Part shown: piece after piece, positions 12,525 to 54,506 of the stretch
Layout: every line of letters starts with the position of its first letter
How positions within the stretch are numbered: position 1 is the first letter of the stretch
NCBI GenBank assembly: GCA_024278215.1
Contig: JAJRTR010000174.1
Coordinates: 23,489 to 87,488 of the forward strand
Direction of reading: 5' to 3'
Source of the DNA: a bacterium
Lineage (GTDB): Bacteria; UBP15; UBA6099; JAJRTR01
Length of the DNA stretch: 64,000 nt
Notes under the pieces: generated by a model
What the model saw: the letters and a program-made list of their open reading frames with translations, nothing else
Told to the model about the DNA's origin: nothing
The model's database searches: none
Program-made: the position numbers and the translations under genes

Positions 12525-12549
12525 TGATTGCCGGGAGGCAAATTGTATT

Positions 12550-14383: not shown

Positions 14384-14540
14384 TTTTCAGGTATTCGCTG
14401 TAATTACGCAATTCTAAAGAGTCCTGTAAATGGGACGTATTTAATATTTGATTATTATTAAATCTTTTTGTGTTGATAAAATGGTCACAATGTGTGGCCA
14501 TTTTTATTTTGACCTGTAATCAATCATCTGCATTCGTTGC

Positions 14541-14746
14541 TATCTTACGACTGAAATGCTACGCAGGATGGTAAAGAGATGCTGAAAAGAGATCGCTGAA
14601 AGCTGGAACTTCCAGTTACAGGCGTTTCCAAGGTAGACCTTTGGAATGATGAAACTCTGTGTGCCGTGCTCAAACCGCATTTGTTTGGGCACGAAAATGA
14701 GGCCTGTTTGGTTTCGGCTTTGCCGGTTAGGGGATTCTTTGTAGTG
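14541..14746 (+). repeat. Repeat family 2, copy 1 (~205 bp, conserved hairpin-containing 3' half)
   Basis: 5' 'tatcttacgactgaaatgctacgca.gatggtaaaga' and 3' 'gatgaaac..tgtgtgccgtgctcaaaccgcatttgtttgggcacgaaaatg.ggcct.tttg.t.cggctttgccgg.ttagg' are shared with 28761-28997. Confidence 0.65.
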
Positions 14747-14867
14747 CTTAACTTATGCGAATTCAGATATTTTGTATGAATTTCGGGGACATGACTGGAA
14801 TGCGCCCTTTAATTCCGGATTGTGTCCCCAGGAAATTCAGCGCATGTTTCAAAAACGCACAGTCATA

Positions 14868-15047
14868 AGAGCCGATTGCAAAATTATGTTCGAAGCGAGG
14901 TCGAGCGAAATTGTTCAGAGCAAGGCTGAGGTGTAAAATCCTCGCAGGCGTACTTGTAGAGTACATCGAGGAAGATTTTGCGCCGACAACGCAGCTATAG
15001 ACAATAACAGCCGACCGCAGCAGAATCATAATTTTGCAATCAGCTCT
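14868..15047 (+). repeat. MITE-like repeat family 1, full copy (~180 bp) with 17-bp terminal inverted repeats
   Basis: Starts 'agagccgattgcaaaat' and ends 'attttgcaatcagctct'. Near-identical copies at 45760-45940 (direct) and 20413-20596 (inverted). Confidence 0.7.
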
Positions 15048-15147
15048 TATGTAGTGTTTAAACATGTTAAAAATACTGAATGCCGAATATTTGATGCTGT
15101 TCCATGCTGGTGTTATAATTCCCGTGAATTCATGAGGAAAATCTTTT

Positions 15148-19292: not shown

Positions 19293-20394
19293 GTGGTATC
19301 GTCCCCCTGGTTTCTTTCAGCATCTCGATAAATGCCTGCACCCGTGTCGCTGCCTGGCCGGCACCTTGCGAATAGTCGCTTTCGAGAAACAGCGCCTTCA
19401 CGTTCATTTCGTCGAGCGCCGTCCTGAGGCGCGGCACATCGTACAGGTGCGTGTCGCAGAATTTCAATGTGTAGACTATCACCCCGTCGGGGTCCTGATG
19501 CGCGACAAGTTCTTTAACTACATCCACAGCAGTTTTCGATGCGGCCATACGCGAGCAAGGTGATTTCGTCAGATATGCTCTCGCCAGTGATCTGCAAAAC
19601 GGTTTGTCCGGTCTGGGCTCCGGAATATTCCAGAAACGGCGGCCCGGGCATACCTCGTCCATCATAACGTGCCCGCCATATTTCTCGACAAGTCGCAGGA
19701 AACCGGGGTCGTCCATCATATTGCCGTAAAGCAACAATCTTGGTCCGACGGGAAACTCCCTGTACTTTATTATCGACTCCTCCTCGTCGAGGAGTTTCAG
19801 CGCGAGCGGCGCGGGCATACGCAGAACCTGCAGCATGACTTCCATCACATAGGAACCTTTCACCTTCGGCGGTTGTCTGCGCCGCGCACCGTCATAACCT
19901 CTGAGCCGCGCACGCAAATACCTGTACAGATCCATCGCGTCAAGTAATTTTTTATCGTCTATTTCTTTTTTGAATGTCGTCTCTATCCAATTTTTAAGTT
20001 CGTCGATTTCACCTGCGAATCTCTCGATATGTTCATCACCATCTTTCTTGGGTACCTGAAGCAGGAAAACCGGTATGCCGGGCTTTCTGCTTCTGACAAT
20101 TTCGTATAGACGCCTCTGTGCGTCGCAGCCGTTTGTCAGGACGAGCGCGTCGAGGAAATCGAGCGTGCCCGATTCGAACTCATCCACCAACGACTTGATG
20201 AACGGGCAAATATTTGTGTGCATCAGAGAATCACCCAACGATGTGGGGCCGTGTGCGCCTGAAATTCTCACAGGTGTCAGTTCCGCTGCCTCGAATATTT
20301 CGAGCGGTGTGTATGTGCAGAACCAGCCTACTGCCGGTCTGCCGTAAGATTTTATCTTCTTCATTTCTTTTTCAGTAAATTGTGTTCCGGCCAT
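19276..20394 (-). CDS. 2-hydroxyacyl-CoA dehydratase family subunit (HgdA/HadB/BcrC-like)
   Basis: 'WFCTYTPLEIFEAAELTPVRI', 'ICPFIKS', 'TNGCDAQRR', 'KFCDTHLYD'. The tracked ORF extends to 20532 through a MITE copy. The Met at 20394 ('MAGTQFTEKEM') is the likely start. Confidence 0.65.
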   Translation of the reverse strand: MAGTQFTEKEMKKIKSYGRPAVGWFCTYTPLEIFEAAELTPVRISGAHGPTSLGDSLMHTNICPFIKSLVDEFESGTLDFLDALVLTNGCDAQRRLYEIVRSRKPGIPVFLLQVPKKDGDEHIERFAGEIDELKNWIETTFKKEIDDKKLLDAMDLYRYLRARLRGYDGARRRQPPKVKGSYVMEVMLQVLRMPAPLALKLLDEEESIIKYREFPVGPRLLLYGNMMDDPGFLRLVEKYGGHVMMDEVCPGRRFWNIPEPRPDKPFCRSLARAYLTKSPCSRMAASKTAVDVVKELVAHQDPDGVIVYTLKFCDTHLYDVPRLRTALDEMNVKALFLESDYSQGAGQAATRVQAFIEMLKETRGTIPRDNTN

Positions 20395-20412
20395 CTTGTC
20401 CTCGCTTCCTAT

Positions 20413-20596
20413 AGAGAGCCAATTGCAAAATTTCGATTCGGCTGCGGTCGGCTGCAATTGTCCATAGCCGCGTTGTCGGCACAAAATCATCCTCAACGTA
20501 CTCGGCGAGTTCGCCTGCGGGGGATTTTGCACCTCCGCCTTGCTTCTGAAAAATTTCGTTCGGCCTCGCTACGAACATAATTTTGCAATTGGCTCT
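20413..20596 (-). repeat. MITE-like repeat family 1, full copy in inverted orientation
   Basis: The reverse complement aligns end to end with 14868-15047 and 45760-45940, including both terminal inverted repeats. Confidence 0.7.
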
Positions 20597-20635
20597 AAAG
20601 TATTTTCTGCATATTATAGCAACTCCGAGTGAAAT

Positions 20636-23876: not shown

Positions 23877-24146
23877 AACAGCATTGGACTCAAGCTTTTG
23901 TAAATAATATACTGAATTTATGCGTTTTTGTAAATGGTAATTGTATTTCCGGGAACATCCGGAATTAAATGGCAAATTCCGGTCATGTCCCAGAAGTTTA
24001 CAGGTAATATTGAAAAACATATAAGATCAGATAATTTTACAATCGGCTCTCCTGATAGATATTTTACCAGTTTACTTGACAAAAAGAGTAATACATTTAA
24101 AATACCAGTAAAACGATAAAGTTTATGATAGACATGGGTTTAGTCT

Positions 24147-24632
24147 ATGAAGATCAACACACGTGCAAGGTACGCGCTAAGACTCATGATTGACATGGCG
24201 CTGAATACGACTCCGGATAAACCTCTCAATCTCAAGGATATATCAGAGAGGCAGGGTATATCTAAAAGGTATCTAGGCCAGATTATCGTTTCACTCAGGA
24301 ACAATTCACTTGTAAAGGGAATGCCGGGTAAGAGTGGCGGTTACATTCTGGCACGCAAACCCGAGGAAATAACTATCAGGAGAATATTTGAGGCTGCTCT
24401 AGGCCCGATAAATATGGTCGATTGCGTTATGAATCCTGAAAGTTGCATCAAGTCGGATTATTGCGAATGCAGGCCTGTGTATGAGTTGATAAACAGCAGG
24501 GTAACGGAGTCGCTGAGTGAATTCACACTCGCGGACCTCGCGCTCGCGTCGAAAAATGCCGGGCACAGAGCGATTCAGGATGATGCACAGGTTGATTTCG
24601 GAATAGACCTGTGCAGTTCACCCGGCAAATAG
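24147..24632 (+). CDS. Rrf2-family (IscR-like) transcriptional regulator
   Basis: 'RARYALRLMIDMA', HTH 'LKDISERQGISKRYLGQIIVSLRNNSLV', Cys ligands 'CVMNPESCIKSDYCECR'. Immediately upstream of dsrMK. Confidence 0.8.
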   Translation: MKINTRARYALRLMIDMALNTTPDKPLNLKDISERQGISKRYLGQIIVSLRNNSLVKGMPGKSGGYILARKPEEITIRRIFEAALGPINMVDCVMNPESCIKSDYCECRPVYELINSRVTESLSEFTLADLALASKNAGHRAIQDDAQVDFGIDLCSSPGK

Positions 24633-24732
24633 ACTGTAGGCGACATATTTATACTTTCATGCCGGTTTGTTCATGGAACCGGATCAGGTGAATTTTTAAA
24701 TAAATGGAAAAATCAAATTAAGACAGGAGGCT

Positions 24733-25677
24733 TTGATGGGACCTATACTGCACCTATTGACCTACGTATGTATGATCGTTTTTGTTGTGGCGGTTGTGCA
24801 TAAATTCAACGAGTACAACAAAATGCCGATGCATCTGCGATGGGAACTCTACCCGGTTGCCCACGAGGGGAAGAAGGCGAGCTATGGCGGTTCGTATTTT
24901 GAAGAAGTCGACTGGTGGGAAAAAGAACGCACCGTAGACATGGGTACGGAAATGAAGCAGATGTCGCAGGAGATTTTATTTCTTGCCGCCGTGAAGGAAC
25001 ACAACCCGAAACTGTGGCTTCGGACATTTCCGTTTCATTTCGGCATGTACAGCCTGATCGGTTTTCTTATGCTTCTTATAGCGGGGGCGCTGCTGGGTGT
25101 GGCCGGTGTCGATATGAGCGGAGGCGGCTTCGGAACTGTGGTGGGCACACTGACAGCCATCGCAGGCTTTGCAGGCGCTGTGCTCGGCGCAATCGGTGCG
25201 CTCGGACTGATCGCGCGCAGGCTTTTCGACGAAGACCTCAAGGACTTCACAAAACCGTCGGATATTTTCAACCTTGTTTTCCTGCTGTCGGTTTTCCTGC
25301 TTATGGCGGCAACAGGAGCGTCCGATCCCTATTTCACCGGACTTCGCGAATATGTTCAGAGTATTATCACTTTCAATATAAACTACGTTCCGTCGAACCC
25401 GGCTGCTGTCGGAGCGATCGCGCTGGCATCGCTTGTGGTCGCATACATTCCTCTCACGCACATGGCGCACTTTGTCGTTAAATATTTCACCTACCACAAC
25501 ATCCGATGGGACGACAGGCCCAACGTGCCCGGTAAGGACCCGATGGGCGATCAGATTGCCGAAGTTCTTCAGTATGAAATAACATGGGCTGCGAGCCACA
25601 TAAACCCAAACGGCACGAAGAAGACCTGGGCCGAAGCAGCCACGGAAAATCCAGAAGAGTTAAAGGAGAGCAAATAA
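24733..25677 (+). CDS. dsrM: DsrM-like NarI-type membrane cytochrome b
   Basis: 314 aa, 5-6 TM with conserved His ('VVHKF', 'PLTHMAHFVVKYFTYH'). Directly precedes dsrK with a 1-nt gap. Confidence 0.65.
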   Translation: MMGPILHLLTYVCMIVFVVAVVHKFNEYNKMPMHLRWELYPVAHEGKKASYGGSYFEEVDWWEKERTVDMGTEMKQMSQEILFLAAVKEHNPKLWLRTFPFHFGMYSLIGFLMLLIAGALLGVAGVDMSGGGFGTVVGTLTAIAGFAGAVLGAIGALGLIARRLFDEDLKDFTKPSDIFNLVFLLSVFLLMAATGASDPYFTGLREYVQSIITFNINYVPSNPAAVGAIALASLVVAYIPLTHMAHFVVKYFTYHNIRWDDRPNVPGKDPMGDQIAEVLQYEITWAASHINPNGTKKTWAEAATENPEELKESK

Positions 25678-25678
25678 C

Positions 25679-27298
25679 ATGGCAAAACCCAAAGACACTA
25701 AACTTTCGCTGAACGATTTTGGGAAACCATGTGACCGCCTTGCGCACATGAACCCTGAAAACCTGATGCCTATGTCCAGGCCGCTCGACTGCCGGGAGCC
25801 CGAGTGGAGTCCTCTCAAGGAGGAGACAAAAGAAAAGTACATGGCATCTCTCGACGACACTCTTGTGCTGAATATTCCCAGACCTCAGAGCAAACGAGAA
25901 GAGCAGGAACTTGTCAGAAAATTTCTTTCCGGTGTGGAAAAGTTGTTTCAGAAGAACAATAACTGGACGTTCCTCCAGCCGCTGGTTTCTACGGTCGAGC
26001 ACTGTGCAAAATGCCAGACATGCAGCGATTCGTGCCATATTTATGAATCGAGCGGAAAGCATGATATGTACCGGCCTACATACCGCTCGGAGATATTCAG
26101 GCGCATCTACCAGGATTACATTCATCCTTCGGGCAGGTACCACAAAACGTGGAAAAACGGTGGTGAGATAAAACTAAGCTGGCTGACGGTGGCCCGTCTG
26201 GGCGAACTCTCCTACAGGTGTAATATATGCCGGCGTTGCGCCCAGTCGTGTCCGATCGGCGCGGATAATTCCGTAGTGGCGCGTGAGATTCGCAAAGTTT
26301 TCAGTCAGGAACTCGGCATCCATACCGTCGAACTGCACGACAACGGCTCGATGCTTCAGCTCAAGGTCGGCTATTCCACGGGAATGAATCCTGAGATCGT
26401 GAAAGACAATATCGAGTTTATCGACGAAGACATGAGCGAAAAAACAGGTATGAAACTCGAGACGCCATGGGATAAGAAAGGTGCCGACATCCTGCTGATC
26501 CACAATGCGGGCGAGATAATGGCATGGCCTGAAAACATAGGCGCGTTCACGGCTATATTCCAGAGCGCAGGCCTCAACTGGACGATGTCCAGTGAAGCGC
26601 TCGGCTACGACAACATCAACTACGGACTCTTCTACGACGACGTGCAGTTTGCGCGTGTAGTGATCAAGCATTTCCAGTGTGCGCAGAAGCTGGGTGTGAG
26701 GAAGATAGTTTTCGGCGAGTGTGGACACGCGACAAAGGCGGCGATGATTATCGCCGACCGCATTCTTACCGGCGACTTGAATATTCCGCGCGAAAGCTGC
26801 TTCCCGCTTTTGAAACAACTCGTCGAGGGCGGCTCTCTGAAGCTCGATCCTTCCAGCAATAACTTTCCGGTCACTCTGCACGATCCGTGCAATCTCGTCC
26901 GCCTGATGGGCATCGTCCAGCCGCAGCGCGACGTTATAAAAAAGATTTGCCCGAAATTCCGCGAGATGACGCCCCACGGCGTGAACAACTACTGTTGTGG
27001 CGGCGGAAGCGGGTTCGCCATCCACTCGGGGCACAACTTCGAAGAGTGGCGTTTCAAGATTTCAGGACGCAAGAAACTTTCGCAGATTCTCAATGCCTTC
27101 AGCGACTGCATCGAGCCGGAAACAAAGAAGTATGTCTGCGCCCCATGCTCGAACTGCAAAGGCCAGATACGAGATATTCTCGGGCATTACAATCTCTGGA
27201 ACGATGCGGGCATCACTTATGGAGGGCTCGTCGAGCTTATCGTCAACGCTATGACGGATGTGAAGCCGAACTATATCGACTGGGACGAAATCATCTGA
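25679..27298 (+). CDS. dsrK: DsrK-like iron-sulfur CCG-domain protein (HdrD-like)
   Basis: Two ferredoxin motifs 'CAKCQTCSDSC' and 'CNICRRCAQSCP'. CCG-domain cysteines 'PCN...YCCGGGSG' and 'CAPCSNCKG'. Confidence 0.8.
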   Translation: MAKPKDTKLSLNDFGKPCDRLAHMNPENLMPMSRPLDCREPEWSPLKEETKEKYMASLDDTLVLNIPRPQSKREEQELVRKFLSGVEKLFQKNNNWTFLQPLVSTVEHCAKCQTCSDSCHIYESSGKHDMYRPTYRSEIFRRIYQDYIHPSGRYHKTWKNGGEIKLSWLTVARLGELSYRCNICRRCAQSCPIGADNSVVAREIRKVFSQELGIHTVELHDNGSMLQLKVGYSTGMNPEIVKDNIEFIDEDMSEKTGMKLETPWDKKGADILLIHNAGEIMAWPENIGAFTAIFQSAGLNWTMSSEALGYDNINYGLFYDDVQFARVVIKHFQCAQKLGVRKIVFGECGHATKAAMIIADRILTGDLNIPRESCFPLLKQLVEGGSLKLDPSSNNFPVTLHDPCNLVRLMGIVQPQRDVIKKICPKFREMTPHGVNNYCCGGGSGFAIHSGHNFEEWRFKISGRKKLSQILNAFSDCIEPETKKYVCAPCSNCKGQIRDILGHYNLWNDAGITYGGLVELIVNAMTDVKPNYIDWDEII

Positions 27299-27319
27299 AT
27301 CGGTCGATTGTAATGTTAT

Positions 27320-28774
27320 GTGAAGGAGAAGCATGTGATTCCCGAGCAGGTCGACAACTGGATTCGCGAGGAGATTTTCGACCGTGTACCCGTCAGTATA
27401 TGCGTGATTGACAGGGACTTCGGAATAGTCAAAGCGAACGAATATTTCCGTCGCAAATTCGGCAGGATACGGGGCAGGCGTTGTTACGAGGCTTACAAGG
27501 GTAACGACGCCCCCTGCGACGACTGCCGGGCGATGAAAACATTCAGCGACGGCGAAGTGCGCGTAACTCAGGAACTGGGCATAGACCGCGACGGGAATCA
27601 TATTCTATACGTTGTCAGGCTCGCGCCGCTCGTCGAGAAAGACGGCTCGATCCCCTATATCATCGAGATGGCCACGGATATTACCGAAGTTAAATTTCTC
27701 CAGAACCAGCTCCGCGAAAAACAGGAACGCTACCGGCTGCTGTTCGACGAAGTTCCATGTTACATAACGATACAGGACCGCGATTTCAAACTTCTCGAAA
27801 CGAACCGGATGTTTAAAGATCATTTCGGAGACCACAAGGGAGAACACTGCTACGAAGTCTACAAACAACGCACAGAACAATGCTACCCCTGCCCCGTTGC
27901 GCAGACGTTCGAGGACGGGAAAGTTAATCGCAGTGAGATGGTGGTAACGTCTAAAGCAGGCGACACTATAAATGTTGTGTCGTACACAGCACCTATCAGG
28001 GACGCGGCCGGCGACATCATGGCCGTCATGGAAATGTCGACGGACATCACGCAGATACGGCAGTTGCAATCCCAGTTGACCAGTCTCGGCCTGCTCATCG
28101 GATCGATATCTCATGGGATAAAGGGCCTGCTCATGGGGCTCGACGGCGGCATCTATGCGATGGAAACGGGTTTTGAAAAGAACGACCAGCAAAAAATCGC
28201 CAAGGGCTGGGAAATGGTGAAGCGCAATGTCGGTCGTGTGCGCAGCATGGTTCTCGACATCCTTTATTATGCGAAAGAGAGGGCATCTGTTCCTGAAACG
28301 ATAGAAGCGCACGTGCTTGCCGGGGAAGTCGCGGAGATCATGCGGCCCAAAGCTACTACATTCAATATCGTTTTCAACACCGACATTCATGATATCTCCG
28401 GAGATATGGAAGTCGACTACAAGGCGGTTCGCTCGATGCTCGTCAATATTATTGAAAATGCTTTCGAAGCTTGCAGAGTCGACAAGGAGAAAACCATACA
28501 CAAAGTCGATTTCATTTTGCGTGAATCTGGCAATGATGTGGTTTTTGAAATAGTCGACGACGGTATCGGTATGGACAGGGACACAAGGAATAAGATATTC
28601 ACATTGTTCTTTTCGACAAAAGGGACTTCGGGAACCGGACTTGGCCTCTTTATTTCCAATAAGATCGCGCGTGATCATGGAGGAAGCATCGAGGTCGAGT
28701 CGACACTCGGCAAAGGCTCAAAGTTCACAATAAGACTGCCGAGGGATATGCCCTCCGCAGTATCTTACGACTGA
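27320..28774 (+). CDS. Sensor histidine kinase with two tandem 4-Cys PAS domains
   Basis: PAS1 Cys set 'SICVIDRD ... RRCYEAYKGNDAPCDDC'. PAS2 Cys set 'PCYITIQDRD ... HCYEVYKQRTEQCYPC'. H-box 'SISHGIKGLLMGL'. HATPase_c 'DDGIGMD', 'GTGLGLFISNKIARDHGGSIEV'. Starts 21 nt after dsrK. Confidence 0.8.
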   Translation: MKEKHVIPEQVDNWIREEIFDRVPVSICVIDRDFGIVKANEYFRRKFGRIRGRRCYEAYKGNDAPCDDCRAMKTFSDGEVRVTQELGIDRDGNHILYVVRLAPLVEKDGSIPYIIEMATDITEVKFLQNQLREKQERYRLLFDEVPCYITIQDRDFKLLETNRMFKDHFGDHKGEHCYEVYKQRTEQCYPCPVAQTFEDGKVNRSEMVVTSKAGDTINVVSYTAPIRDAAGDIMAVMEMSTDITQIRQLQSQLTSLGLLIGSISHGIKGLLMGLDGGIYAMETGFEKNDQQKIAKGWEMVKRNVGRVRSMVLDILYYAKERASVPETIEAHVLAGEVAEIMRPKATTFNIVFNTDIHDISGDMEVDYKAVRSMLVNIIENAFEACRVDKEKTIHKVDFILRESGNDVVFEIVDDGIGMDRDTRNKIFTLFFSTKGTSGTGLGLFISNKIARDHGGSIEVESTLGKGSKFTIRLPRDMPSAVSYD

Positions 28775-28997
28775 AATGCTACGCATGATGGTAAAGAAAT
28801 GATGAAAAAGAGATCGGTGAACGCGGAGCGTTCAGTCCCTGCGTTCCGGGTCGGAATCAGGATCGATGAAAAACCGGTGTGGACGAGTGTGAGTGTGATG
28901 ACTGTGGGAATGATGAAACCATGTGTGCCGTGCTCAAACCGCATTTGTTTGGGCACGAAAATGCGGCCTTTTTGTTCCGGCTTTGCCGGGTTAGGAA
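28761..28997 (+). repeat. Repeat family 2, copy 2 (~237 bp), overlapping the kinase stop codon
   Basis: Same 5' and 3' conserved blocks as 14541-14746. The TGA of the kinase lies inside 'tatcttacgactga'. Confidence 0.65.
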
Positions 28998-29033
28998 TAC
29001 GGTAAATATACGGGTGAAAGATGGAGAAGTTCG

Positions 29034-29432
29034 ATGCAGGATAAGAAAAAGATTTTCATTATTGACGACGAGCCGGATACCGTTGACTTTCTGTCAATGA
29101 TATTCGAGGATGGCGGTTTCGACGTTATTTCCGTTACTAATCCCGACAGGGCGGTCGAGATCATCGCTGCTGAGAATCCGGACCTGATAACGCTCGATAT
29201 TGTCATGCCGCACAAAACCGGCGCGAAAATATATAACGAACTACGCACTAAAATCGAATACGCGAATATCCCCGTTATTGTCATTTCCGGCGTTGAACCC
29301 GGAGATTACATCCACAACATATCCGTCAATGATTCGACTGAAAACTCGATAGCAGGCCCCTGCGCTTTCATTGAAAAACCCATCGATAAATCTTTTCTTT
29401 TGAACACTGTCCGCAAGCTGCTTTCCTGCTGA
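29034..29432 (+). CDS. Single-domain response regulator (receiver only)
   Basis: 'IFIIDDEPD', 'LITLDIVMPHKTG', 'PVIVISGV'. Confidence 0.8.
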   Translation: MQDKKKIFIIDDEPDTVDFLSMIFEDGGFDVISVTNPDRAVEIIAAENPDLITLDIVMPHKTGAKIYNELRTKIEYANIPVIVISGVEPGDYIHNISVNDSTENSIAGPCAFIEKPIDKSFLLNTVRKLLSC

Positions 29433-30903: not shown

Positions 30904-31063
30904 TTTCAGGGAATCTATGTCCATCATTAAACTGTTTTCTCATAGTTCCGAAGCTCTGCCCCTGAAAGTACGGAATGATCGCTTTGCATTCTAAGTTCTT
31001 TTCTTATTTGGAAATACACGTGCGATGATATGATAATGTTAAAAAATAAAACGATGTGAAAAT

Positions 31064-34000
31064 ATGCAAAAATCTAATTTGAAACATTTTGTTGTTGCAA
31101 TTTTCATGATCTGTGCAATCTCTGTGCATGCATCGGCTTCCGCCGATTTTACGTCGAGTTGGACAAGTATCGAAACGAATGAAAGCACGTGCTCGGCGTG
31201 GGGCGATTATGACGGGGACGGCGACCTGGACGTTGTAGTCGGCGACGCAAATACCGGCACTATGCTTTACAGCAACGCGGGCGGCGCGTCTTTCAGTATC
31301 GTGTGGCAGTCGGAGGACGCCGACCTTGTCGTCTCACTTGCCTGGGGCGATTACGACCGTGACGGCGACCTGGATATACTTGTCGGCAACAATCCCGGAA
31401 ACAACAGGGTTTACAGCAACAGCGGCGGCGGAGTTTTCACGCTCGCCTGGACTTCCAGCAGTGTCAGGAGAACAGTCAGGGCGGAGTGGGGAGATGCGGA
31501 CGCCGACGGTGACCTGGACTTTCTCGCGGGCGTCTACGATGAACCTGCAAGGGCTTTCAGGAACACGGGCGCGAGCCAATTTGAATTGATATGGAGTTCG
31601 CAGGAATCCGATCCGACTACATGTATCGACTGGGCCGACGCCGATGCGGACGGCGACCTCGATTTTGTAAAAAGTGCGAACAGCGCCGTCGACCGGGTGT
31701 ACCGGAATGAAGGCGGTTCGGCCTACACTCTTATGTGGTCTTCCGCAAGATCGGATAAGGCGTATTTCACCGAATGGAGCGATTACGACGGCGACGGCGA
31801 CCTTGATTTCGCGGTCGCCAATTACGATGAAAAAGACCGTGTCTACAAAAACTCCGGCAACTGGTATTTCGATATGGTCTGGGCTTCGGCGACCGACTCT
31901 CCCTCAATCGGACTGGCATGGGGCGACTACGACGGCGATGGTGACAGCGATTTGCTCTTCGGCAACTACGCTGCAAGCAATAATGTTGTTGCTTACGCCG
32001 GTTCCGATAATTTCACTGATTCATGGTCTTCGCCGGAAGCCGATTATACATACCAGGTGACATGGGCCGACTACGACGGCGACGGCGATCTCGACCACTT
32101 CGTTTCAAACATCAGCAGCCAGTCAAACCGACTCTACAAGAATAATCTTTCCATATCCAATTCACCGCCTGCGGCCCCGGTGATTACCGGACAGCCGGAC
32201 GGTCTGCCCGGACTCATCACGCTTAGCTGGTCCGCCGCATCCGACGACATCACACCCGCTGTGGACCTCACTTACCAGGTGCGCGTGGGCACTTGCTCTG
32301 GGTGTGGCGGCATAATATCGGGCGCTTTCGCGCCTCCTTTCGGCAATTCGCGACAGACGGAATTCCATAAACTTAATATCCAGGACGACGGTACGTATTA
32401 CTGGTCAGTGGCCGCCGTCGATAGCGCTGGGTTCTCGACCTCGACATGGTATGTCGAGGACTCGTTCACAATATCTGCTCCGAGCGGAACTCCGTACCAG
32501 TCTATATGGACCGGTCCGTCGTCTGACCAGACAACAGCTATTGCGACCGCCGACTACGACGACGACGGTGACCTCGATTTTATTGCCGCCAATGACTCTG
32601 AAGTCAATACAGTGTACAGGTATAACGGTAACAATACTTTCACCGCCGTGTGGTCGTCTCCGGAAACAGACGCCACGAACGACGCGGCATGGGCCGACTA
32701 CGACGGGGACGGCGACCTCGACCATGCTGTCGCCGACAACGGCGCGAACCGCGTCTACTCCAAAACGGACGATTACAACTTCAGCCTCGTCTGGTCATCG
32801 ACGGAAACCTCCAACTCACTCGCGACAGCCTGGGGAGACTACGACCGCGACGGCGATCTCGATTTATTTGCGGGCAACGTCGGCGCGAACCATCTGTACA
32901 GAAACAATTCGGACGACACATTTACTCTCGTCTGGACTTCGACAGAAACAGACACGACTTCGGGCGCGGTATGGCTCGACGCCGACGCCGACGGCGTTCC
33001 GGACATTTTCTGCGCCTCCGACGGCACTTCCGACAGGCTCTACTTGAACAACGGTGACGACACTTTCACTCTCGCATGGTCATCGACTCAGACAGACGCG
33101 ACAAAAGACGCGGCGGCGGCGGATTATGACGGGGACGGACTCGTGGACATTTCCGCGCCTGCGGTCGGCGCGACACAAAACAGGCTCTACTCAAATAACG
33201 GCGACGGCACTTTCACTCTCGCATGGTCATCGACTCAGACAGATGAAACATATTCGTGCACATGGGGCGATTACGACGGTGACGGCGACTGGGACCTGCT
33301 TGCCGGCAACAGCGGCGTCAACAGGGTATACGCGGGCGACGGCGCGGGCGGCTTCACGCTCGAGTGGTCATCCGCTGAAGGCGAAGTCACTTACGCTGCC
33401 GCATGGGGCGATGTGGACGGCGACGGCGACCTTGATATAATCTCCGGTAACAACACTTCGGCCAACAGGCTATATCTTTACACCTCCGATATCTCGAACC
33501 TCAACCCGGCCGCGCCCGTTTTAGTCGCCGGGAGCAACGCGACACTTTCCGGCGCTACCGTTTCCGTTACTTTCAACTGGAACGCTGCCGTCGACGACAC
33601 GACCGCCCCTGTCTCGATGATGTACCATCTGCGTGCCGGCACATGTTCCGGTTGCGACGACATCGTTTCCGGAGCTTACGCTTCACCAGTTCCCAATGTC
33701 GGCGCGACAACTTCCATTTCCATCGTTTTCGATGCTACCGGCACATACTACTGGTCTGTTGCTGCCATCGACAACACTTCTCTAAGTGCGTCATCATGGA
33801 GTTCGGAGGATAGCTTCGAGATTATCGAGCCCACGGGAACACAAACGCCGTTCGAGTCGATATGGACCGGAACGGATATCAACCTGACTCGAGATGCCGC
33901 GTGGGGCGACTACGACGGCGACGGCGATCTTGATTTCTTTGCAGCGAACTATACGCAGGGAAATTTCGTATACCGCAACGACGGCAGCGCTACTTTCAAT

Positions 34001-37000
34001 AAAGTTTACGAAGACAACCTTTTCTCATATACAACATCCGGTGCGTGGGGTGACTACGACGGCGACGGCGATCTCGATTTGCTGTTCTCAAACTATAATG
34101 AAAGCAATTACGTTTTTAAAAACACGGGAAGTGACGATTTCGTGTCGGCATGGTCCACAACGCAGGCGAATTCAACAAACGACGCCGAGTGGGGCGATAT
34201 GGACGGCGACGGCGATCTCGATTTCATCGCGGGCAATGACGGCCAGTCGATTTTAGTTTTCAGCAACAACGGATCGGGCGGTTTCACGTATGGCTGGGGC
34301 TCGACGGAAACGAATAATACGAGTTCTATTTCAGTGGTCGATTTCGATAAGGACGGTGACCTCGATTTCATCGCGGTGAACAACGGACAGTCCGATATTA
34401 TCTACGATAACGGCGGAGGCGGCACTTTCAGCGTCGCCTGGACGTCTGCTGAAACAGACAGCGGCAGCGGCGGCGCGTGGGGTGACTATGACGGCGACGG
34501 CGACTACGACATAGCCGTAGCCAACAACACGCAGTCGAATCGCGTTTACTCGAACGCCGGGGCCGCAAACTTCACATCGGTCTGGACATCCACGGAGGCG
34601 GATGCGTCGCACACTGCCGCGTGGGGCGACTACGACGGCGACGGCGATCTCGACCTGCTTTTCGGCAACTATTATACGACTTCCGACACCGACAGAGTCT
34701 ACACCAACGCAGGCGGCGACAATTTCCCGCTGGGCTGGTCGGCGACAAATCAGGAATACACGCGCGCGGCGGCCTGGGGCGATTACGACGGCGACGGCGA
34801 TCTCGATTTCATCGCGGCCAACGAAGACGGCTCCGACAGGATTTACAGAAACAATCTTTCCATCTCCAACACCGCTCCGCCCGCTCCCACACTGACGTTA
34901 ATTGACGACGGTGACCCGGGTACGGTCGTTTTTCAATGGGCTGCCACTTCCGATGACATCACCCCCGACAGCCTGCTTGCATTCCAGTTGCGCGTCGGCA
35001 CGTGCACGGGCTGCGACGACATTATAAGCGGCGAATTCGCGCCTCCTTTTGTCAACATGGGCGCTACCGGCTCCTACCCGATGATACTCGGCAACGGCGA
35101 TTATTACTGGTCCATTGCTTCTGTCGACACCACAGGTTTCTCTGTTTCCTCGTGGAGCACAGAAGACGACTTTCACCTCGAACATATACCGGCAGTCCCA
35201 TTCGAGTCCACATGGCAAAGCACCGAAAGCAACAGGACGGCGGCACTCGCATTGGGCGATTTCGACGGCGACAGCGACCTCGACCACATTGCTGCCGACT
35301 CCGATTCGATTCGCCTTTACCGCAACACAGGATCGTATTCTTTCACGCTCGCCTGGTCATCGTCGTCGATGACAAACAACATGGATGCCGCGTGGGGCGA
35401 CTACGACGGCGACGGCGATCTCGATTTCGCTGTTTCCACCGGCTCGGGCGGTTACGTGTCGGTCTATGAGCAGACAACTTACGCCGCCTTTTCATCCGTA
35501 TGGGCTTCGTCTCAAACAGATAAAACATACAGTGTCGCGTGGGCCGACTGCGACGCGGACGGCGACCTCGACCTTCTAACCGCCAATCTCGCGGACGGCT
35601 CGACTGGTTCGAACAACAGGGTATACCGTAACGAAGGCCGCGGCGACTTTGTCGTCAACTGGACATCTGCCGAGGCCGACATAACTTATGATGCCGCGTG
35701 GGGCGATTACGATGGCGACGGCTACAGGGATATTGTCGCGGGAAACGACGGCGCGAACAGGATTTACCGAAATGTCGCATGTGACTACTTCACCATCGTG
35801 TGGACTTCCGTCGAAAGCGACAGGACGACCGGCGTCGCGTGGATGGACTACGACGGCGACGGCGACCTTGATTTCGCCGCGGGCAGCGCGGACGGCAACG
35901 ACCGTGTTTATAATAACGACGGCGCGGGCGGTTTCTCCGCCGTGTGGACTTCCACCGCCACATCGACGACTTCATCAGTCGCATGGGGCGACTACAACGC
36001 CGACGGCTACCCCGATCTCGCTTCAGTCAACAACAGTTCTATCGCCGATTCGGAACATGTTTACGGCAACAACGGCGACGATACCTTTTCGACAGCGTGG
36101 AACTCGCCTCTCGATGAGGAATCGCAGGACGTCGCATGGGGCGACATCGACGGCGACGGCGACCTCGACCTGCTCATAGCTTCCGGCGGCGACACATCGG
36201 CGGATGCGAATATCCTGTATGTCAATTACGTCGAGCCGGCGAACAACGCACCTACTACTCCGTCCGTAACCGTGGTTCCAGACGGTTTCACCGGCTATGT
36301 CGACCTGCAATGGACTGCTTCAACTGATGATGTTACTCCGTCTGATGAAATCCGCTACATCGTCCGGGCCGGTACTTGCTCCGGTTGCAACGACATCATT
36401 TCCGGCCTCTATTCGCCGCCTCTGACCAATGCCGGTACGGCAACTAGTTACAGGGTACATATCGCCGGTGCGGATACATATTACTGGCAGGTTAAGGCGA
36501 TAGATATGGCAGGCTTCCGCGAATCAGGCTGGTCGAACGCCGATGATTTCGTCTTGACAGACCGTTTCTCATCCGCATGGACCGGAAGCGCATATTACAA
36601 TATTGAAGATGTCGCGTGGGGCGACTACGACGGCGACGGCGACCTCGACATAGCTGCGGCGGTAAACGGTACGCCCAACCTTGTTATCGAAAACAGCGGT
36701 GGCGGCAGTTTTTCGACGGTTTGGTCTTCTTCCGAAAGCGATTACACACGCTCCGCCGCCTGGGGCGACGCGGACAACGACGGCGATCTCGATATTCTCG
36801 TGGGCAACACCGATTCGGCTTCGGGCGGCGACCAGAACCGCGTCTATTCCAACAACGGCGACGGCACGTTTACTGTCACATGGTCCACCTTTGAAATGAA
36901 CCGTACTTACGATGCTGTGTTTACAGACTGCGACGCGGACGGCGACCTCGATATTGTCGCCGCTAATGAATATGAAAACATAATTTACACCAATAATGGC

Positions 37001-40000
37001 GGTAGTTCGTTCACTTCAAGTTCATTGTCTTCACACCAGGAGCGGACACGGGCGCTATCTCCCGCCGACTTCGATGCCGACGGCGACTTCGACTTGCTCG
37101 AAGGCAACTACGGCGCGCCCAACAGGGTATTCAGAAACGACGGCTCGGGCAATTTCTCCGAACTGTGGGCCTCTTCCGGCAGTGAATATACCTCTGCTGT
37201 CGCATGGGCCGACACAGACGGCGACGGCGACCTCGACGCTTTCTTCGGCAACAGTTACGTGGGTGCACTGAACTATATTAATGTTAATGACGGCGCGGGT
37301 TCGTTCTCCGCCTCATGGACATCGCGCGACGCCGACGAAACTTATGACGCCGCGTTCGGCGACACAGACGGCGACGGGGACCTCGACCTGATTACCGCCA
37401 ACAGCGATTCTGATTCCACCCGCGATAATTACAGGCTCATCCGCGTTTACTCGAATTCCGGCGGCAACTTGTTCGCGGCATCGGCAAACATGGGAGCCGG
37501 CGATTATGCCGTTGCTGTCGCGCTCGGCGACTATGACGGCGACGGCGACCTCGATATCCTCGAAGGTTCGAGCGACGGCGGCGACGACATGCCTGTTCGT
37601 GTGTATATGAATAACATGGACCCGTCGAATGCCGCTCCATCCGCGCCGTCTGTTATCAAAACAGACAACCAGGTTCTCTCAGCCGCTACTTCTCCGATCT
37701 CCATAGCGTGGTCCGCACCGTCCGACGACATCACAGTCACCGCGCTCCTGTCATATCAGTTACGTATCGGCACATGCCCCGGCTGCAGCGATGTTATGTC
37801 GGGCGCTTTCGCGCCTCCCGGCGGCAATATCGGCGCGACGACTGCTGTCAATATCAACATGTCCGATTCTGGCACGTACTACTGGTCGGTCGCGGCGGTG
37901 GACAACACAGGCTTCGCGACAGGCGCATGGTCGGACGAGGAATTTTTCGCCGTTTCACTTCCCCTGTTCGATACAGGTTGGACGAGTCCCGAAGGTGGAA
38001 CATGCAGGGATGCCGCGGCAGGTGACTTCGACGGCGACGGCGACCTCGATATTGCATCGAGCTTCGACGCGCAGAATATGGTTTATGAGAATAACGGCAG
38101 TGGCTCTTTCAGCGACGCATGGACATCCGCCGAGTCTGAAAACACGATGGAAGTCGCATGGGGCGACTACGACAACGACGGCGACCCGGACATACTTGTC
38201 GCCTCCGCAAACGGGCCTGCGAGGATATATAAAAACACTGGCGGCACCTTCTCTACTGCATGGTCATCCATTATGAGCGTGCAGGGCGGCGGCGTCTCAT
38301 GGGCCGACCTCGACAACGATGGCGACCTCGACTTCGCCGCCTCGAGCTACGGCATAAACAATCTCGTCTACAGAAACGACGGCGGCGATTCTTTCACCCT
38401 TTCATGGCTTTCCAGCGACACAGACAACACAACTGACGTCGAATGCGCCGACTTCGACAATGACGGCGACAGCGACATTGCCGCTGCGAATGAGTCCGGA
38501 CCTGTGAAGCTTTACGCAAACGACGGCGCGGGCAGTTTCATTGCTGTCTGGACATCCTCCGACACCGGCTACACAAGTGGGATTTCGACCGGAGATTACG
38601 ACGGTGACGGCAATTTGGATATGCTCACGGTGGCTGGTTCTTCATACTACAACAGAGTGTACCGGGGCGGTGGCGGCGGCACATTCACAGCCGTGTGGAC
38701 CGCTGGAGAGGACGGTCCGTTTTCCGGCGGCGCGTGGGGCGACTACGACGCGGACGGCGACCTCGATTTCTTCGTCTCCTACAGCGGCACAGACAGTCGT
38801 GGCAGCCACGTTTATCGCAATACAGGTAGTGATTCCTTCAACCTCGTGTGGGCGTCGCTGAATGATGACGCGTCGTACAGCGCCGCCTTCGGCGATTTCG
38901 ACGGCGACGGCAATATCGATCTGCTCTCGGCGAATACCGGCGTAAGAACATGGACGAATATGTCCACCGTATCGAACAGCGCGCCCGCGCAGCCGACTGT
39001 AACAGCCGTCGGCGATCAGGAATTCCACATCTCGGCCACTCCTGCCGTAACACTGTCATGGACCGCGCCCTCCGACGACTACACACCCTCGAATTCACTC
39101 ACATACCAGGTGCGAGTCGGCACTTGTTCGGGATGTAGCGACATCGTCTCCGACACTTTCGTGCCGCCGTGGGGCAACGCCGGCCCTTCGACGTCATACA
39201 CTTTCAACGCGACCGCATCCGGCACTTATTACTGGAGTGTATCCGCCGTGGACACTTCGGGGTTCCTCGTGGGCGCGTCGAGCGCGGAGGATGTCTTCGA
39301 TGTTTCATTTTCGATGCTCGGCACAAGGACACCGTTCGATTACTCGTGGTACGGCAGCGCGTCCGACTACAGCAGCGGCAGCGCCTGGGGCGACTACGAC
39401 GCCGACGGCGACCTCGACATCCTGATTTCAGACGCCGGCGCGTCCGCCGGCAACAGGATATACTCGAACGACGGCGGCAACACCTTCACGCTCGCGTGGA
39501 CGGCGACTGAATGGAACACAACGGAAGCCGCCGCCTGGGCTGACTACGACGGTGACGGCGACCTCGACGCTGTTTTCGTTTCAGGCGGTTCGGGCGAGCC
39601 GAATTATGTTTACCGAAATGTTGGCGCGGGCGGCTTCGTAGTCGGTTGGACTTCGACGGAAACCGAGCCTTCGCAGGCCGTTGCCATCGGCGATTTCGAC
39701 GGCGATGGCGATCTTGATATCTTCGTCGGAAATAACAGCGCGTCTGTTCCTGACCGCGTTTATAAAAATGTTTCCACAGGTTTCACCACCGCCTGGACTT
39801 CGTCTTCATACTACACGACGCGCGCCGTGGATATGGCAGACTACAACCTCGACGGTCGCCCCGACTTACTGCTCGGCAACAGCGGCTCTGCCATGGAACC
39901 GATTGTCATATATTCGAACAAAGGCGGCGAGTGTTTCACCGAAGCCTGGACTTCGTCCGAGCAGGAATACACTTCCGCCGTCGAGTGGGGCGACTACGAC

Positions 40001-42588: not shown

Positions 42589-43533
42589 CTACTGCAACGG
42601 GTTCTCGCTGCGAGGTATCTCCTTAGCGTCATCCTGAATCTTCATGATTACCGGCAGGATACGCTGGAATGCAAACGTCGTCTCGGAAGAGATATGTTCA
42701 TACACAAACGGTTTGCCCGTTTCCGCCGACTTTGCGACAATCGGGTCGAGCGGGATACTGCCAAGGTAAGGGACGTCGAGATCTTCGCACATTTCCCTGC
42801 CGCCGCCAACGCCGAATATTTCGATCTCCTTCTTGCAGTGCGGGCACACAAGGCCACTCATATTCTCGATAACGCCGATAATCGGGATGTGGATTTTGCG
42901 GCAGAATGTAATAGTCTTTCTCACGTCGGTAATAGATATACCCTGCGGCGTAGTGACAATGACGGCACCGTCGATATTCGGTATCAACTGGCAGATCGTA
43001 AGGGGTTCATCGCCTGTGCCCGGCGGAGAGTCGATAATCAGGAAATCGAGATCACCCCACTGCACCTCGCGAAGGAACTGCTGCAGGAAGGATATCTTCG
43101 ACGGGCCGCGCCATATTACCGCGTCGTCTTTCGATCTCAGCATGAATCCAAGCGACATAACCTTAAAATACTTTTCGTATTGTTCCGGCAATATTATCTG
43201 ACCGGCGGTTTTCACCACACCGTCTTCCATATTCAACATCCTTGGAACACTTGGACCATGCAGGTCTGTATCCATCAGTCCCACTTCCCTGCCCGCGAGC
43301 GAAAGAGCCATTGCCATATTCACAGCAACCGTGCTTTTCCCCACACCGCCCTTGCAACTCATAACGATTACCTTATGTTTTATGCGGCCAAGACTGCGGG
43401 CAAACTCACGCCTGTCTATCGAGCCTTCAACCGACCTCTGTTCAATTTCTTCCTGTTCCTTCGGTGACTTCTGTTCACTACTTTGCCCACAGCTTGTTCC
43501 CGAGCAACTCTCGCATAAGTTTTCTTCAGTCAT
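42589..43533 (-). CDS. apbC: Mrp/NBP35-family Fe-S cluster carrier ATPase (ApbC-like)
   Basis: Walker A 'SCKGGVGKSTVAVN', 'DSPPGTGD', 'CPHC' motif. Confidence 0.85.
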   Translation of the reverse strand: MTEENLCESCSGTSCGQSSEQKSPKEQEEIEQRSVEGSIDRREFARSLGRIKHKVIVMSCKGGVGKSTVAVNMAMALSLAGREVGLMDTDLHGPSVPRMLNMEDGVVKTAGQIILPEQYEKYFKVMSLGFMLRSKDDAVIWRGPSKISFLQQFLREVQWGDLDFLIIDSPPGTGDEPLTICQLIPNIDGAVIVTTPQGISITDVRKTITFCRKIHIPIIGVIENMSGLVCPHCKKEIEIFGVGGGREMCEDLDVPYLGSIPLDPIVAKSAETGKPFVYEHISSETTFAFQRILPVIMKIQDDAKEIPRSENPLQ

Positions 43534-43933
43534 TATTCTTCACCTCGAAGTCATATATATAGCAGGATTCACCCGCCAATCCAATAAAAATCGAAAAACA
43601 AATCCCGACCCGGCATAGCCGGAACCAGAAAGGTCGCATTTTTCACCGATCTCTTTTCAACATTTCTTTACCACCTTGCGCAGGATCTCATTATTATTCA
43701 ATCCAGTTGATAAATACCACCTCACTGTGCAAGTATATCTGAAACCGTAAACTATTAAGGATATTTTTATTAACAAAACTTTTCTTATCACTGTATACGC
43801 GGCACTGTGCGTCACTTTCTTTTTTTCACATACCTCTCTTGCAGACCGGTGCGCAGAGGGCGCATGGGAGTGTTCGGAAGACGGATATACGCTGAAAACA
43901 TGTACGAAAGGCACATGGATCACGCGGGAGTGC

Positions 43934-54366: not shown

Positions 54367-54428
54367 GGTGAATGCGGAGCGTTCAGTCCCTGCGTTCCGG
54401 GTCGGAGCCTTGGAACGATGAAAGCTGT
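54367..54428 (+). repeat. Repeat family 2 fragment (mosaic of the middle blocks of copies 1 and 2)
   Basis: 'gcggagcgttcagtccctgcgttccgggtcgga' is identical to 28826-28858. 'ttggaacgatgaaagct' resembles 14641-14657. Confidence 0.5.
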
Positions 54429-54506
54429 TTTACCCACACGATTCAGCGAAGAGCCAAATGAATAAATCGACTTAATGATTTTCACGCATGTTTGCGGTGC
54501 GGCACA

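Follow-up and report, generated by a model that had tools for sequence, protein, structure and literature searches.

How does a sensor histidine kinase come to end on a stop codon that lies inside an intergenic repeat, and what kind of element would have supplied it? The question arises from a 64,000-nt stretch of bacterial DNA (the window), in which the last codons of a kinase gene fall within one copy (copy B) of a short repeat, here called family 2 (Table 1). The host is an uncultured, dsrAB-carrying, sulfite-reducing bacterium. The reading favored here, which is given a probability of roughly two in three, is that family 2 is a lineage-restricted, non-coding and modular intergenic repeat that behaves like a non-autonomous mobile element, and that copy B reached the kinase gene by insertion.

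Table 1. Positions of the kinase locus, the five family-2 loci and the parts of copy B in the window
Feature	Position	Strand	Remarks
PAS/HATPase_c sensor histidine kinase	27320..28774	+	last four codons and stop supplied by copy B
Present kinase stop TGA	28772..28774	+	inside 5' block of copy B
Putative ancestral kinase stop TAA	29003..29005	+	in frame (...RDMPSAVR*) after excision
Single-domain response regulator	29034..29432	+	usually 12-32 nt downstream of kinase; here 259 nt
Terminator-like hairpin after dsrC	14478-14504		copy A begins 37 nt 3' of hairpin
Copy A	14541..14740	+	5' block, one middle module, hairpin module, tail
Copy B (longest, 237 nt)	28761..28997	+	5' block, 1.5 middle modules, hairpin module, tail; between kinase and response-regulator genes
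5' block of B	28761..28823	+	each of the three forward frames meets a stop within 14 codons (read directly)
Candidate hairpin CAUGAU-GGUAAAGAA-AUGAUG	within 28761..28823	+	in 5' block of B
Middle modules of B	28817..28929	+	full module 28817-28878; partial second module, 3' half 28900-28929; nhmmer E=7e-16, 0.03
Hairpin GTGCUCAAAC-CGCAUUU-GUUUGGGCAC in B	28930..28956	+	10 bp, -13.9 kcal/mol
Tail module of B	28957..28997	+	small hairpin CCGGC-UUU-GCCGG at 28977-28989
Copy C (minimal element)	43598..43690	-	5' block fused straight to tail; no middle or hairpin module
Copy D (middle module alone)	54367..54433	+	89% identical to that of B; downstream of heparinase II/III-like gene
Copy E (diverged middle module alone)	30938..30991	-	found by nhmmer with middle-module profile, E=6.9e-5

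The end of the kinase gene

The initial annotation had the kinase frame run into the repeat and terminate at its TGA with the residues ...SAVSYD*, which is indeed the case, the final 14 nt of the ORF (gTA TCT TAC GAC TGA) lying within the repeat. Three relatives share the gene order Rrf2/DsrM-like/DsrK-like/kinase/regulator, with kinases that are 83%, 66% and 62% identical to the one in the window; their kinase-regulator spacers measure 32, 12 and 18 nt, compared with 259 nt here. The comparison of C-termini that had been proposed as a check bears the observation out: the orthologous kinases have different C-terminal ends and carry no repeat, and neither blastn nor nhmmer detected any family-2 module in the four kinase loci and four dsrC loci of relatives. 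Excision of exactly 28761-28997 (237 nt) yields ...SAVR followed by a TAA that aligns with the TAA of the orthologue, and the 28 nt 3' of this codon are homologous to the orthologue's 32-nt kinase-regulator spacer. Because the relatives' spacers span only 12-32 nt and excision restores a frame ending at TAA, copy B is, as far as sequence comparison indicates, a lineage-specific insertion at the very 3' end of the kinase ORF. Insertion had been offered alongside recruitment of the element as the 3' end of the gene; the spacers and the excision speak for the former, and for the latter nothing was found beyond the exchange of VR* for VSYD*.

The element would have entered 9 nt ahead of the original TAA. 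Its 5' end has stops in all three frames, which is why the kinase frame now closes at the TGA of the element. Judged from the aligned residues, the insertion alters only the last residues of the kinase, from VR* to VSYD*. The HATPase_c domain ends near residue 475 of 484 and the changed residues lie beyond it, so the exchange is expected to leave the catalytic domain unaffected. Donation of a stop codon by an intergenic repeat is a well-known and nearly harmless bacterial behavior. The main value of the case is one of annotation, in that the kinase's last four residues, its stop and the long spacer would stem from repeat insertion and not from a lineage-specific feature of the protein. A sequence of 237 nt with several predicted stable hairpins now parts two otherwise tightly linked genes, and the kinase:regulator expression ratio could shift, either through protection of the upstream mRNA by a 3' hairpin or through partial termination.

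Copies and modular architecture

The copies at 14541 and 28761 have the coordinates and sequences reported in the initial annotation, and BLAST of copy A against the window confirmed the second copy of its blocks. These had been put at about 50 and 80 bp; the shared blocks exist and are longer, namely ~67-68 nt for the 5' block (14541-14607 versus 28761-28827, 89.7% identity) and 90 nt for the 3' block (14643-14731 versus 28907-28995, 92.2%). The string GTGCTCAAACCGCATTTGTTTGGGCAC occurs exactly twice in the window (14666-14692 and 28930-28956), as does TATCTTACGACTGAAATGCTACGCA, where dinucleotide shuffles expect no occurrence of either. Instead of the three copies initially counted, five loci of 54-237 nt were found on both strands, copies C and E having been missed, and 5/5 are intergenic or lie at the extreme 3' end of a gene. 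Copy C ends ~65 nt upstream of an Mrp/NBP35-type ATPase gene (43533..42589), whose homologues reach at most 66% identity, and copy E lies between a flavin-reductase gene and a gene for a 3835-aa FG-GAP repeat protein. Copies A, B and C are 84-92% identical in their blocks and have sharp common boundaries, with TATCTTACG... at the 5' end and ...GTTAGG at the 3' end.

Because copy C consists of the 5' block and tail and the middle module also stands alone at copy E, the family is, on this alignment, modular: a 5' block is followed by zero to ~1.5 middle modules, in some copies by a hairpin module, and then by a tail. The variable middles fit such a build better than they fit two unrelated inserts. 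Copy D had been described as a mosaic of the two middles, which is fair since BLAST aligns 54367-54423 with the middle of B at 89.5% identity and the last ~20 nt resemble '...CCTTTGGAATGATGAAAC' of A; the better reading would nevertheless be that A, B and D carry one homologous middle module.

Small reading frames and hairpins

Two observations might point to the element as the gene of a small cysteine-rich peptide (MMK[LP]CVPCSNRICLGTKMRP...) or, in A and C, the 6-codon leader peptide MLKRDR*. The ORFs of copy A (32 aa, 14646-14744) and copy B (68 aa, 28799-29005) have MMKxCVPCSNRICLGTKMRP in common, and MRP[VF]WFRLCR[LV]G is found in both A and C, where several of the differences are synonymous. 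Against this, a search of 1.84 billion protein representatives with the 68-aa ORF across B yielded no credible homologue, the sole match being a marginal one (E=2e-4) to a repeat-rich 1259-aa protein. Frameshifting indels separate A, B and C, and B is out of frame with the other two in the 5' block and again in the tail. Moreover, the cysteine-rich part is wholly missing from C, the seemingly coding stretch coincides with a perfect 10-bp hairpin, and a convincing Shine-Dalgarno sequence is missing. A peptide product is thus very improbable, and family 2 is, by these comparisons, non-coding, with spurious small ORFs across it. A 49-aa ORF over copy D, which is preceded by a good SD-like GGAGGA, was rejected on the differences between D and E, which number 4/6/4 at codon positions 1/2/3, and on the lack of a Pfam match.

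A function at the RNA level deserves closer consideration. The core formed by 5' block and tail, as in copy C, could be a structured small RNA or cis-regulatory leader in which the middle and hairpin modules are tolerated expansion segments; it would operate as an antiterminator/terminator switch between GUGCUCAAAC/GUUUGGGCAC and CCGCAUUU/AAAUGCGG followed by CCUUUUUGUU, with the regulator gene as target at B and mrp at C. Taken together, this proposal is considered unlikely. Some of its structural ingredients are present. In copy B, the loop and one stem base of the strong hairpin (28939-28946) are complementary to AAAUGCGG at 28959-28966, giving an alternative stem of -10.0 kcal/mol that is mutually exclusive with the 10-bp hairpin (-13.9 kcal/mol). 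Written as CCGCAUUU/AAAUGCGG followed by CCUUUUUGUU, this stem encloses a loop of 12 nt at about -10 kcal/mol; in copy A it is weakened by a G-A mismatch to -7.1 kcal/mol. The two stems are treated as alternatives because the 2-nt link cannot bridge a 10-bp stem, and a pseudoknot arising from the same complementarity is ruled out by this geometry. A stretch of 42 nt around the hairpin is identical between A and B, in blocks that are otherwise 8-10% diverged.

The 5' block offers a second candidate hairpin, CA[N]GRU-loop-AUG[N']UG, in which one pair reads G:C, U:A and A:U in A, B and C; all 15 of 15 cells are paired, and pairing falls to 15-67% in slid controls. Yet this covariation comes from three sequences and is equaled by 81 of 500 shuffles, with many chance 'covarying' column pairs, and whole-element folds compared with shuffles are modestly stable for A (z=-2.2) and no better than random for B (z=-0.5) and C (z=-0.4). 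Position speaks both for and against it: B and C lie just 5' of, and co-oriented with, a gene, as a leader would, but D sits between convergent genes and E is antisense to both neighbors, and the orthologous operons function without the element.

The initial annotation described a stem-loop followed by a T-run; the hairpin of 10 bp is identical in A and B, but the T-run begins 13 nt after it in both, and a terminator scan called no terminator in B and none on the element's strand in A. The tail of C, which would suit a leader, is the only part of family 2 that scored as terminator-like, and no promoter-like site was detected upstream of B or C, reading in the direction of the element. Rfam covariance models gave no match anywhere in the window at gathering thresholds, and at E<=5-10 the three element regions returned only noise (such as sR20, with 13 bits where 44 are required), those of A and C giving nothing at all, so that the one outcome that had been named as undermining the initial annotation on this point, a match to a known small RNA or terminator family, did not materialize. 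An archaeal C/D-box sRNA was likewise set aside, its recurring AUGAUGA motifs reaching 13 bits against the threshold of 44. The sigma-54 promoter consensus is GG-N10-GC, and a candidate site of this type, TGGGCACGAAAATGC, was rejected with a GG-to-GC spacing one nucleotide below canonical.

Mobility, distribution and known repeat systems

The favored reading of a non-autonomous mobile element has to accommodate ends that bear few marks of transposition. No terminal inverted repeats were found in A, B or C, where the first 90 nt aligned to the reverse complement of the last 90 nt score only 7-8. A 'TA' is present at both junctions of B (28761-62 and 28998-99), a 2-nt match that is too short to count, and no direct repeat matches across comparable ends of A and C. 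No motif is common to the left flanks of these few copies (GTTGC, CGCAG and AATAA). A Pfam scan of window ORFs revealed no transposase (Y1/HUH included), no RAYT and no reverse transcriptase. An integron attC origin was dismissed, the copies not being arranged in an array and the core sites being unfit, as was a DGR variable/template repeat pair, for which no reverse transcriptase is present and the differences are not adenine-specific.

Searches of public DNA were equally sparse in matches. The 5'-block pattern GGTAAAGANATGN{3,4}AAAAGAGATC has none in GTDB representative genomes and none in viral contigs, and its six matches in metagenome contigs are all chance occurrences inside coding regions of unrelated contigs. 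The tail pattern is absent from GTDB genomes and the hairpin from viral contigs, and blastn in its 'distant' setting found no match to family 2 in plasmid and phage collections. Family 2 has therefore been seen so far only in the source bacterium; its sequence appears to be new, and the kind of element to be a known one. Because no copy was found in the collections or in the relatives' loci searched, the case for mobility draws on a single comparison of a filled with an empty site.

These results would also suit copies that never moved but were left behind when an intergenic terminator or UTR underwent local segmental duplication or gene conversion, with the kinase copy placed by illegitimate recombination: the copies are few and all lie inside 64 kb, inverted repeats and clear target duplications are missing, no transposase is nearby, and nothing was found outside the source genome. 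Such an origin is regarded as improbable, slightly more so than the RNA switch. The five intergenic contexts of the copies are unrelated and fall on both strands, yet the boundaries are sharp and common to them; BLAST of A against the window revealed no co-duplicated flanking sequence; a variable interior between conserved ends is what selection on the ends of an element would leave; and copy B is a clean insertion of 237 nt.

The element would accordingly be best pictured as a non-autonomous mobile mosaic. As a conjecture, its copying may depend on an enzyme that acts in trans from another place in the genome and for which the conserved 5' block and tail could be the recognized ends; internal modules might be gained or lost through unequal or slipped recombination, as in pneumococcal BOX. 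A bolder version would make the ~95-nt core a functional hairpin element, either an undescribed small structured RNA or a single-stranded DNA element lacking terminal inverted repeats and target duplications and moved by an HUH-type enzyme, with the modules as exchangeable cargo. Its insertion would then rewire the stoichiometry of kinase and regulator, a two-component pair tied to a DsrMK-like redox module, but this is a long shot.

By architecture, and apparently not by sequence, the nearest analogue of family 2 is pneumococcal BOX. BOX elements follow the scheme boxA-(boxB)n-boxC, including boxB-less A1C1 forms; they are found in clusters with other repeats, and the stop codons of 36 CDSs lie in them (PMC3049150). 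Both have conserved 5' and 3' modules around a variable number of internal ones, zero included (none in C, one in A and ~1.5 in B). BOX also resembles family 2 in its size range (~70-640 bp), in being intergenic, in its predicted stem-loops, in its clustering with other repeat families, and in its frequent overlap with extreme 3' gene ends, where it donates a stop without meaningful truncation (PMC3049150). The differences are that BOX has terminal inverted repeats and target duplications, neither of which is detectable in family 2, and that family 2 has an internal module that also occurs alone (D and E), five loci and a host that is not a Firmicute.

REP/BIME sequences and hairpin elements of the IS200/IS605 type (REPINs, PATEs) are reported to affect mRNA 3'-end stability (PMC3333891, PMC2817692). 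They are like family 2 in being intergenic mosaics of short hairpin-forming units in which hairpins rather than sequence are kept, with no terminal inverted repeats and no target duplication (none convincing in family 2). Unlike REP, family 2 has no 20-40-nt palindrome headed by GTAG/CGTC and no pair in alternating orientation: its hairpins GTGCTCAAAC...GTTTGGGCAC and CCGGC...GCCGG lack such a head and occur 2-3 times each in 64 kb, far fewer copies than the >100 per genome typical of REP. Compared with the IS200/IS605 hairpin elements, its few copies have hairpins but no common left-flank target motif, and no RAYT/TnpA gene was seen in the window. MITEs (Correia, RUP) and a further repeat of the window, family 1, are likewise short intergenic sequences that occur in several copies, encode no protein and can alter the ends of genes and the transcripts of operons. 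Family 2 agrees with MITEs in size (54-237 nt, where MITEs stay below ~600 bp), in copy number (five loci) and in coding status (frame-shifting indels, no ORF homologue), but the definition of a MITE calls for terminal inverted repeats and a target duplication, and such inverted ends, ~58 nt long in family 1, were not found in family 2. SPRITE elements resemble family 2 in carrying a hairpin with a U-rich tract near 3' gene ends and may be co-opted as terminators (PMC3049150); A and B differ in the 13-nt gap between hairpin and T-run and in not being called as terminators, and only the tail of C scores. Should family 2 prove to have a discrete transcript, or to transpose without terminal inverted repeats, a lineage that has been little sampled would contribute a new case to the BOX/BIME class; none of the present results calls for this.

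Association with family 1 turned out to be looser than first described. Two copies had been placed beside family-1 elements, suggesting an insertion hotspot or composite element. Only A is adjacent (122 nt); D is ~436 nt away, with a DUF190 gene (54507-54842) in between. Of the ~20 intergenic gaps that measure 100 nt or more, each family occupies five by our own count, with one gap common to both against 1.25 expected, so that adjacency is no more than chance and a hotspot or composite is not supported. The window also shows a dsrAB-carrying genome rich in short intergenic repeats, which is relevant to MAG assembly and to searches for regulatory RNAs. At least three repeat families fill about half of its larger intergenic gaps.

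Copies and modular build of family 2

Family 2 is best explained as a modular intergenic repeat that is non-coding and specific to its lineage. The sequences quoted by the initial annotation for 14541-14746 and 28761-28997 are correct, and a BLAST comparison of A with the window bore out the two shared blocks, a 5' block (14541-14607 in A, 28761-28827 in B; 68 nt, 89.7% identity) and a 3' block (14643-14731 and 28907-28995; 90 nt, 92.2%). In the window, the 27-nt hairpin (GTGCTCAAAC-CGCATTT-GTTTGGGCAC) has exactly two occurrences, as does the 25-nt 5' end (TATCTTACGACTGAAATGCTACGCA), against an expectation of 0 from dinucleotide shuffles even with 3 mismatches. The first observation is thus confirmed and extended, since its three copies were too few: BLAST and profile searches (nhmmer --max, one alignment per module) add C and E, giving five loci. 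In C, a third 5' block (~43690-43641, 84-86% identity) is directly followed by the tail (43643-43597, 88%), forming a minimal form of ~95 nt that lacks the middle module and the GTGCTCAAAC hairpin and ends ~65 nt short of the downstream gene for an Mrp/NBP35-type ATPase. E (E=6.9e-5) is a diverged middle module lying between a flavin-reductase gene and a 3835-aa FG-GAP repeat gene. D was rightly related to the middle of B (89.5% identity by BLAST at 54367-54423), although it is better read as a solitary middle module than as a mosaic. The same middle-module profile detected a second, partial unit within B (28900-28929, E=0.03). These differing module sets make the family modular, and the unlike middles of A and B are best read, from their alignment, as diverged versions of one module with a partial duplication.

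Several features adjoin these loci. Downstream of C, before the mrp start codon is reached, inspection by eye gives a sigma-70-like promoter candidate (TTGGAT-17 nt-TATATA); the mrp transcript may therefore begin after C instead of including it in the 5' UTR. The 49-aa ORF passing through D (MFAKAYEEFFVLTEVFYGECGAFSPCVPGRSLGTMKAVLPTRFSEEPNE) is preceded 7 nt upstream by a strong GGAGGA Shine-Dalgarno-like motif; it is probably spurious, because it has no Pfam match and shows no third-position bias in comparison with E. The single FG-GAP/VCBS-like ORF beside E comprises dozens of ~144-nt (48-aa) repeats with a WGDYDGDGDLD motif and a super-period of ~1350 nt, and one such unit occurs in the C25 peptidase (15701-15749).

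Repeats and other features of the window
Feature	Position	Strand	Content
Family 2, A	14541-14740	+	5' block, one middle module, hairpin module, tail
Family 2, B	28761-28997	+	5' block, ~1.5 middle modules, hairpin module, tail
Family 2, C	43598-43690	-	5' block, tail
Family 2, D	54367-54433	+	middle module alone
Family 2, E	30938-30991	-	middle module alone
Family 1	14864-15051, 4841-4917, 20415-20601, 45754-45944, 54864-54894	both	full copies and fragments
Third family	14747-14820, 23957-24030		74 nt, second locus inverted
dsr genes	10213-14383		dsrA, dsrB, dsrN-like cobyrinic-acid-amidase homologue, dsrC
dsrC-peptidase gap	14384-15147		765 nt
C25 peptidase	15148-16950
HGD-D dehydratase ORF call	19276-20532
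Conserved operon	24147-29432		Rrf2, DsrM-like, DsrK-like, PAS kinase, response regulator; ~10 kb from dsr genes
PAS/HATPase_c kinase ORF	27320-28774		TGA at 28772-28774
FG-GAP/VCBS-like ORF	31064-42571	+	3835 aa
Promoter candidate	43560-43590	-
49-aa ORF	54316-54465	+

Copy B at the 3' end of the kinase gene

The kinase frame does run into copy B and end at its TGA (...SAVSYD*), as first described, with the last 14 nt of the ORF inside the repeat. A kinase protein search recovered orthologues (P0002 at 83% identity, others at 62-66%) on contigs with the same gene order, namely Rrf2, Nitrate_red_gam/DsrM-like, CCG/DsrK-like, PAS kinase and response regulator. The distance from kinase stop to regulator start is 32 nt in relative L001, 12 nt in L008 and 18 nt in L009 and L010, as against 259 nt here. 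The C-terminal tails of the orthologues (...RLPVDTCSERDCCV and others) vary among themselves and differ from that of the window kinase. Exact deletion of B (237 nt, 79 codons) yields ...RDMPSAVR followed by a TAA at 29003-29005, which coincides in the alignment with the TAA of the L001 orthologue, and the spacers 3' of it are visibly homologous (tatacgggtgaaagatggagaagttcgATG vs tacacggggaagctggtgatagctgATG). Both the spacer lengths and the excision result support the proposal of insertion with donation of a stop codon: copy B would have entered the gene 9 nt ahead of its original stop, changing VR* to VSYD*. The HATPase_c domain ends near residue 475 of 484, which suggests a functionally untouched protein. 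Within its first 42 nt, copy B has a TGA in every forward frame (after 3, 8 and 13 codons), so that a gene entered from that side is soon closed. By analogy with REP and BOX elements, B might plausibly alter the kinase:regulator ratio locally, because 237 nt of hairpins now part two genes that almost abut in relatives.

Candidate identities, folding and known analogues

A known RNA is rejected: Rfam returned nothing at gathering thresholds across the window and, at E<=10, noise around B and nothing around A and C, so that no known small RNA family is matched. In A, B and D (14640-14655, 28785-28920, 54410-54420), every module has (A/G)AUGAUGAAA or GAUGAAA at its 3' end, a recurrence that accounts for weak matches to archaeal C/D-box sRNAs, which stay sub-threshold (13 bits vs a gathering score of 44); the motif is probably a module-junction mark, not a k-turn. 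A protein-coding element is ruled out by the 68-aa ORF across B having no credible homologue among 1.84 billion protein representatives, by frameshifting indels between copies in both 5' block and tail, and by the even spread of D-E differences over codon positions (4/6/4). A canonical terminator is likewise rejected. The sequence GAAAAUGCGGCC intervenes between the strong hairpin (-13.9 kcal/mol) and any U-run, and a terminator scan made no call in B or, on the strand of the element, in A; the tail of C was the only part called terminator-like. The loop of the hairpin together with one base of its stem (CCGCAUUU) complements downstream AAAUGCGG; this mutually exclusive stem reaches -10.0 kcal/mol in B, followed by CCUUUUUGUU, and -7.1 kcal/mol in A, where it carries a G-A mismatch.

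Hairpins are clearly present in every module. RNAalifold of the three 5' blocks predicts CA[N]GRU-GGUAAAGAR-AUG[N']UG, whose variable pair changes from G:C in A to U:A in B and A:U in C. All 15 of 15 cells pair, vs 15-67% with the partner strand slid; 81 of 500 shuffles of these three sequences equal this pairing, and many column pairs covary by chance. The tail hairpin CCGGC-N3-GCCGG is retained with one U-G change. Whole-element folds are no better than shuffled sequence in B (z=-0.5) and C (z=-0.4) and modestly better in A (z=-2.2). These data do not demonstrate selection on structure.

The family is probably a non-autonomous mobile or mosaic element, as indicated by conserved 5' and 3' ends, a variable interior, sharp shared boundaries and one demonstrable filled-vs-empty site. 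It would be copied in trans and would gain and lose internal modules through unequal recombination. Pfam scans of the window ORFs revealed no transposase, RAYT or reverse transcriptase. A classical MITE is excluded, as the copies have neither terminal inverted repeats (TIRs) nor convincing target-site duplications (TSDs). Among known elements, the streptococcal BOX element, with its boxA-(boxB)n-boxC build (PMC3049150), comes closest in behaviour; family 2 differs from it in lacking TIRs and TSDs. It shares that lack with Y1/HUH-moved REP/BIME or IS200/IS605-type hairpin elements (PMC3333891, PMC2817692), but has no GTAG/CGTC-headed palindrome and no shared left-flank target, so it is not an established member of that group. 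Modular intergenic repeats are already known as a kind, to which family 2 adds one; interest is otherwise low and would rise if genome-wide copies or transcripts showed structured RNA or unusual TIR-less mobilisation.

Host lineage and neighbouring repeats

Degenerate 5'-block and tail patterns gave 0 matches in 185,579 GTDB species genomes, and the 5'-block pattern gave 6 chance matches in metagenome contigs, all in unrelated coding regions. No family-2 match was found in viral contigs, plasmids or phages, and no module in the relatives' loci around the kinase (L001, L008-L010) or dsrC (L011-L014; 91% DsrC identity). Within reach of these searches, family 2 thus appears lineage-restricted, all five loci lying in one 64-kb window. 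The best relatives of the window's Mrp show 50-66% identity and none exceeds ~66% (those named are Hydrogenedentes, Kiritimatiellia and Sedimentisphaerales MAGs), indicating a poorly sampled lineage; kinase matches other than P0002 are at 38-66%, those named including Poribacteria and Abyssobacteria. The window encodes dsrAB, the dsrN-like amidase, dsrC, HGD-D dehydratases, glycosyltransferases, a glycyl-radical enzyme and others, and the dsr genes together with the DsrMK-like operon indicate a dissimilatory sulfite or sulfate reducer.

Family 1, an element distinct from family 2, is MITE-like, ~190 nt long and has imperfect inverted ends of ~58 nt (AGAGCCGATTGCAAAAT...). Two of three family-2 copies had been placed beside it; this holds for A alone (122 nt), a DUF190 gene separating D from the nearest family-1 fragment. 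By hand count, ~20 intergenic gaps are 100 nt or longer, of which each family occupies 5 and the two share 1, vs 1.25 expected by chance, which supports neither an insertion hotspot nor a composite element. The dsrC-peptidase gap holds members of families 1 and 2 and of the third family, and looks like a permissive region. The third family, 73% complementary between its loci, carries a GGGGACA...TGTCCCC hairpin, and one copy lies between A and the family-1 element. At its 5' end, an HGD-D dehydratase ORF call overlaps the family-1 copy at 20415-20601, and its start codon is therefore probably mis-called.
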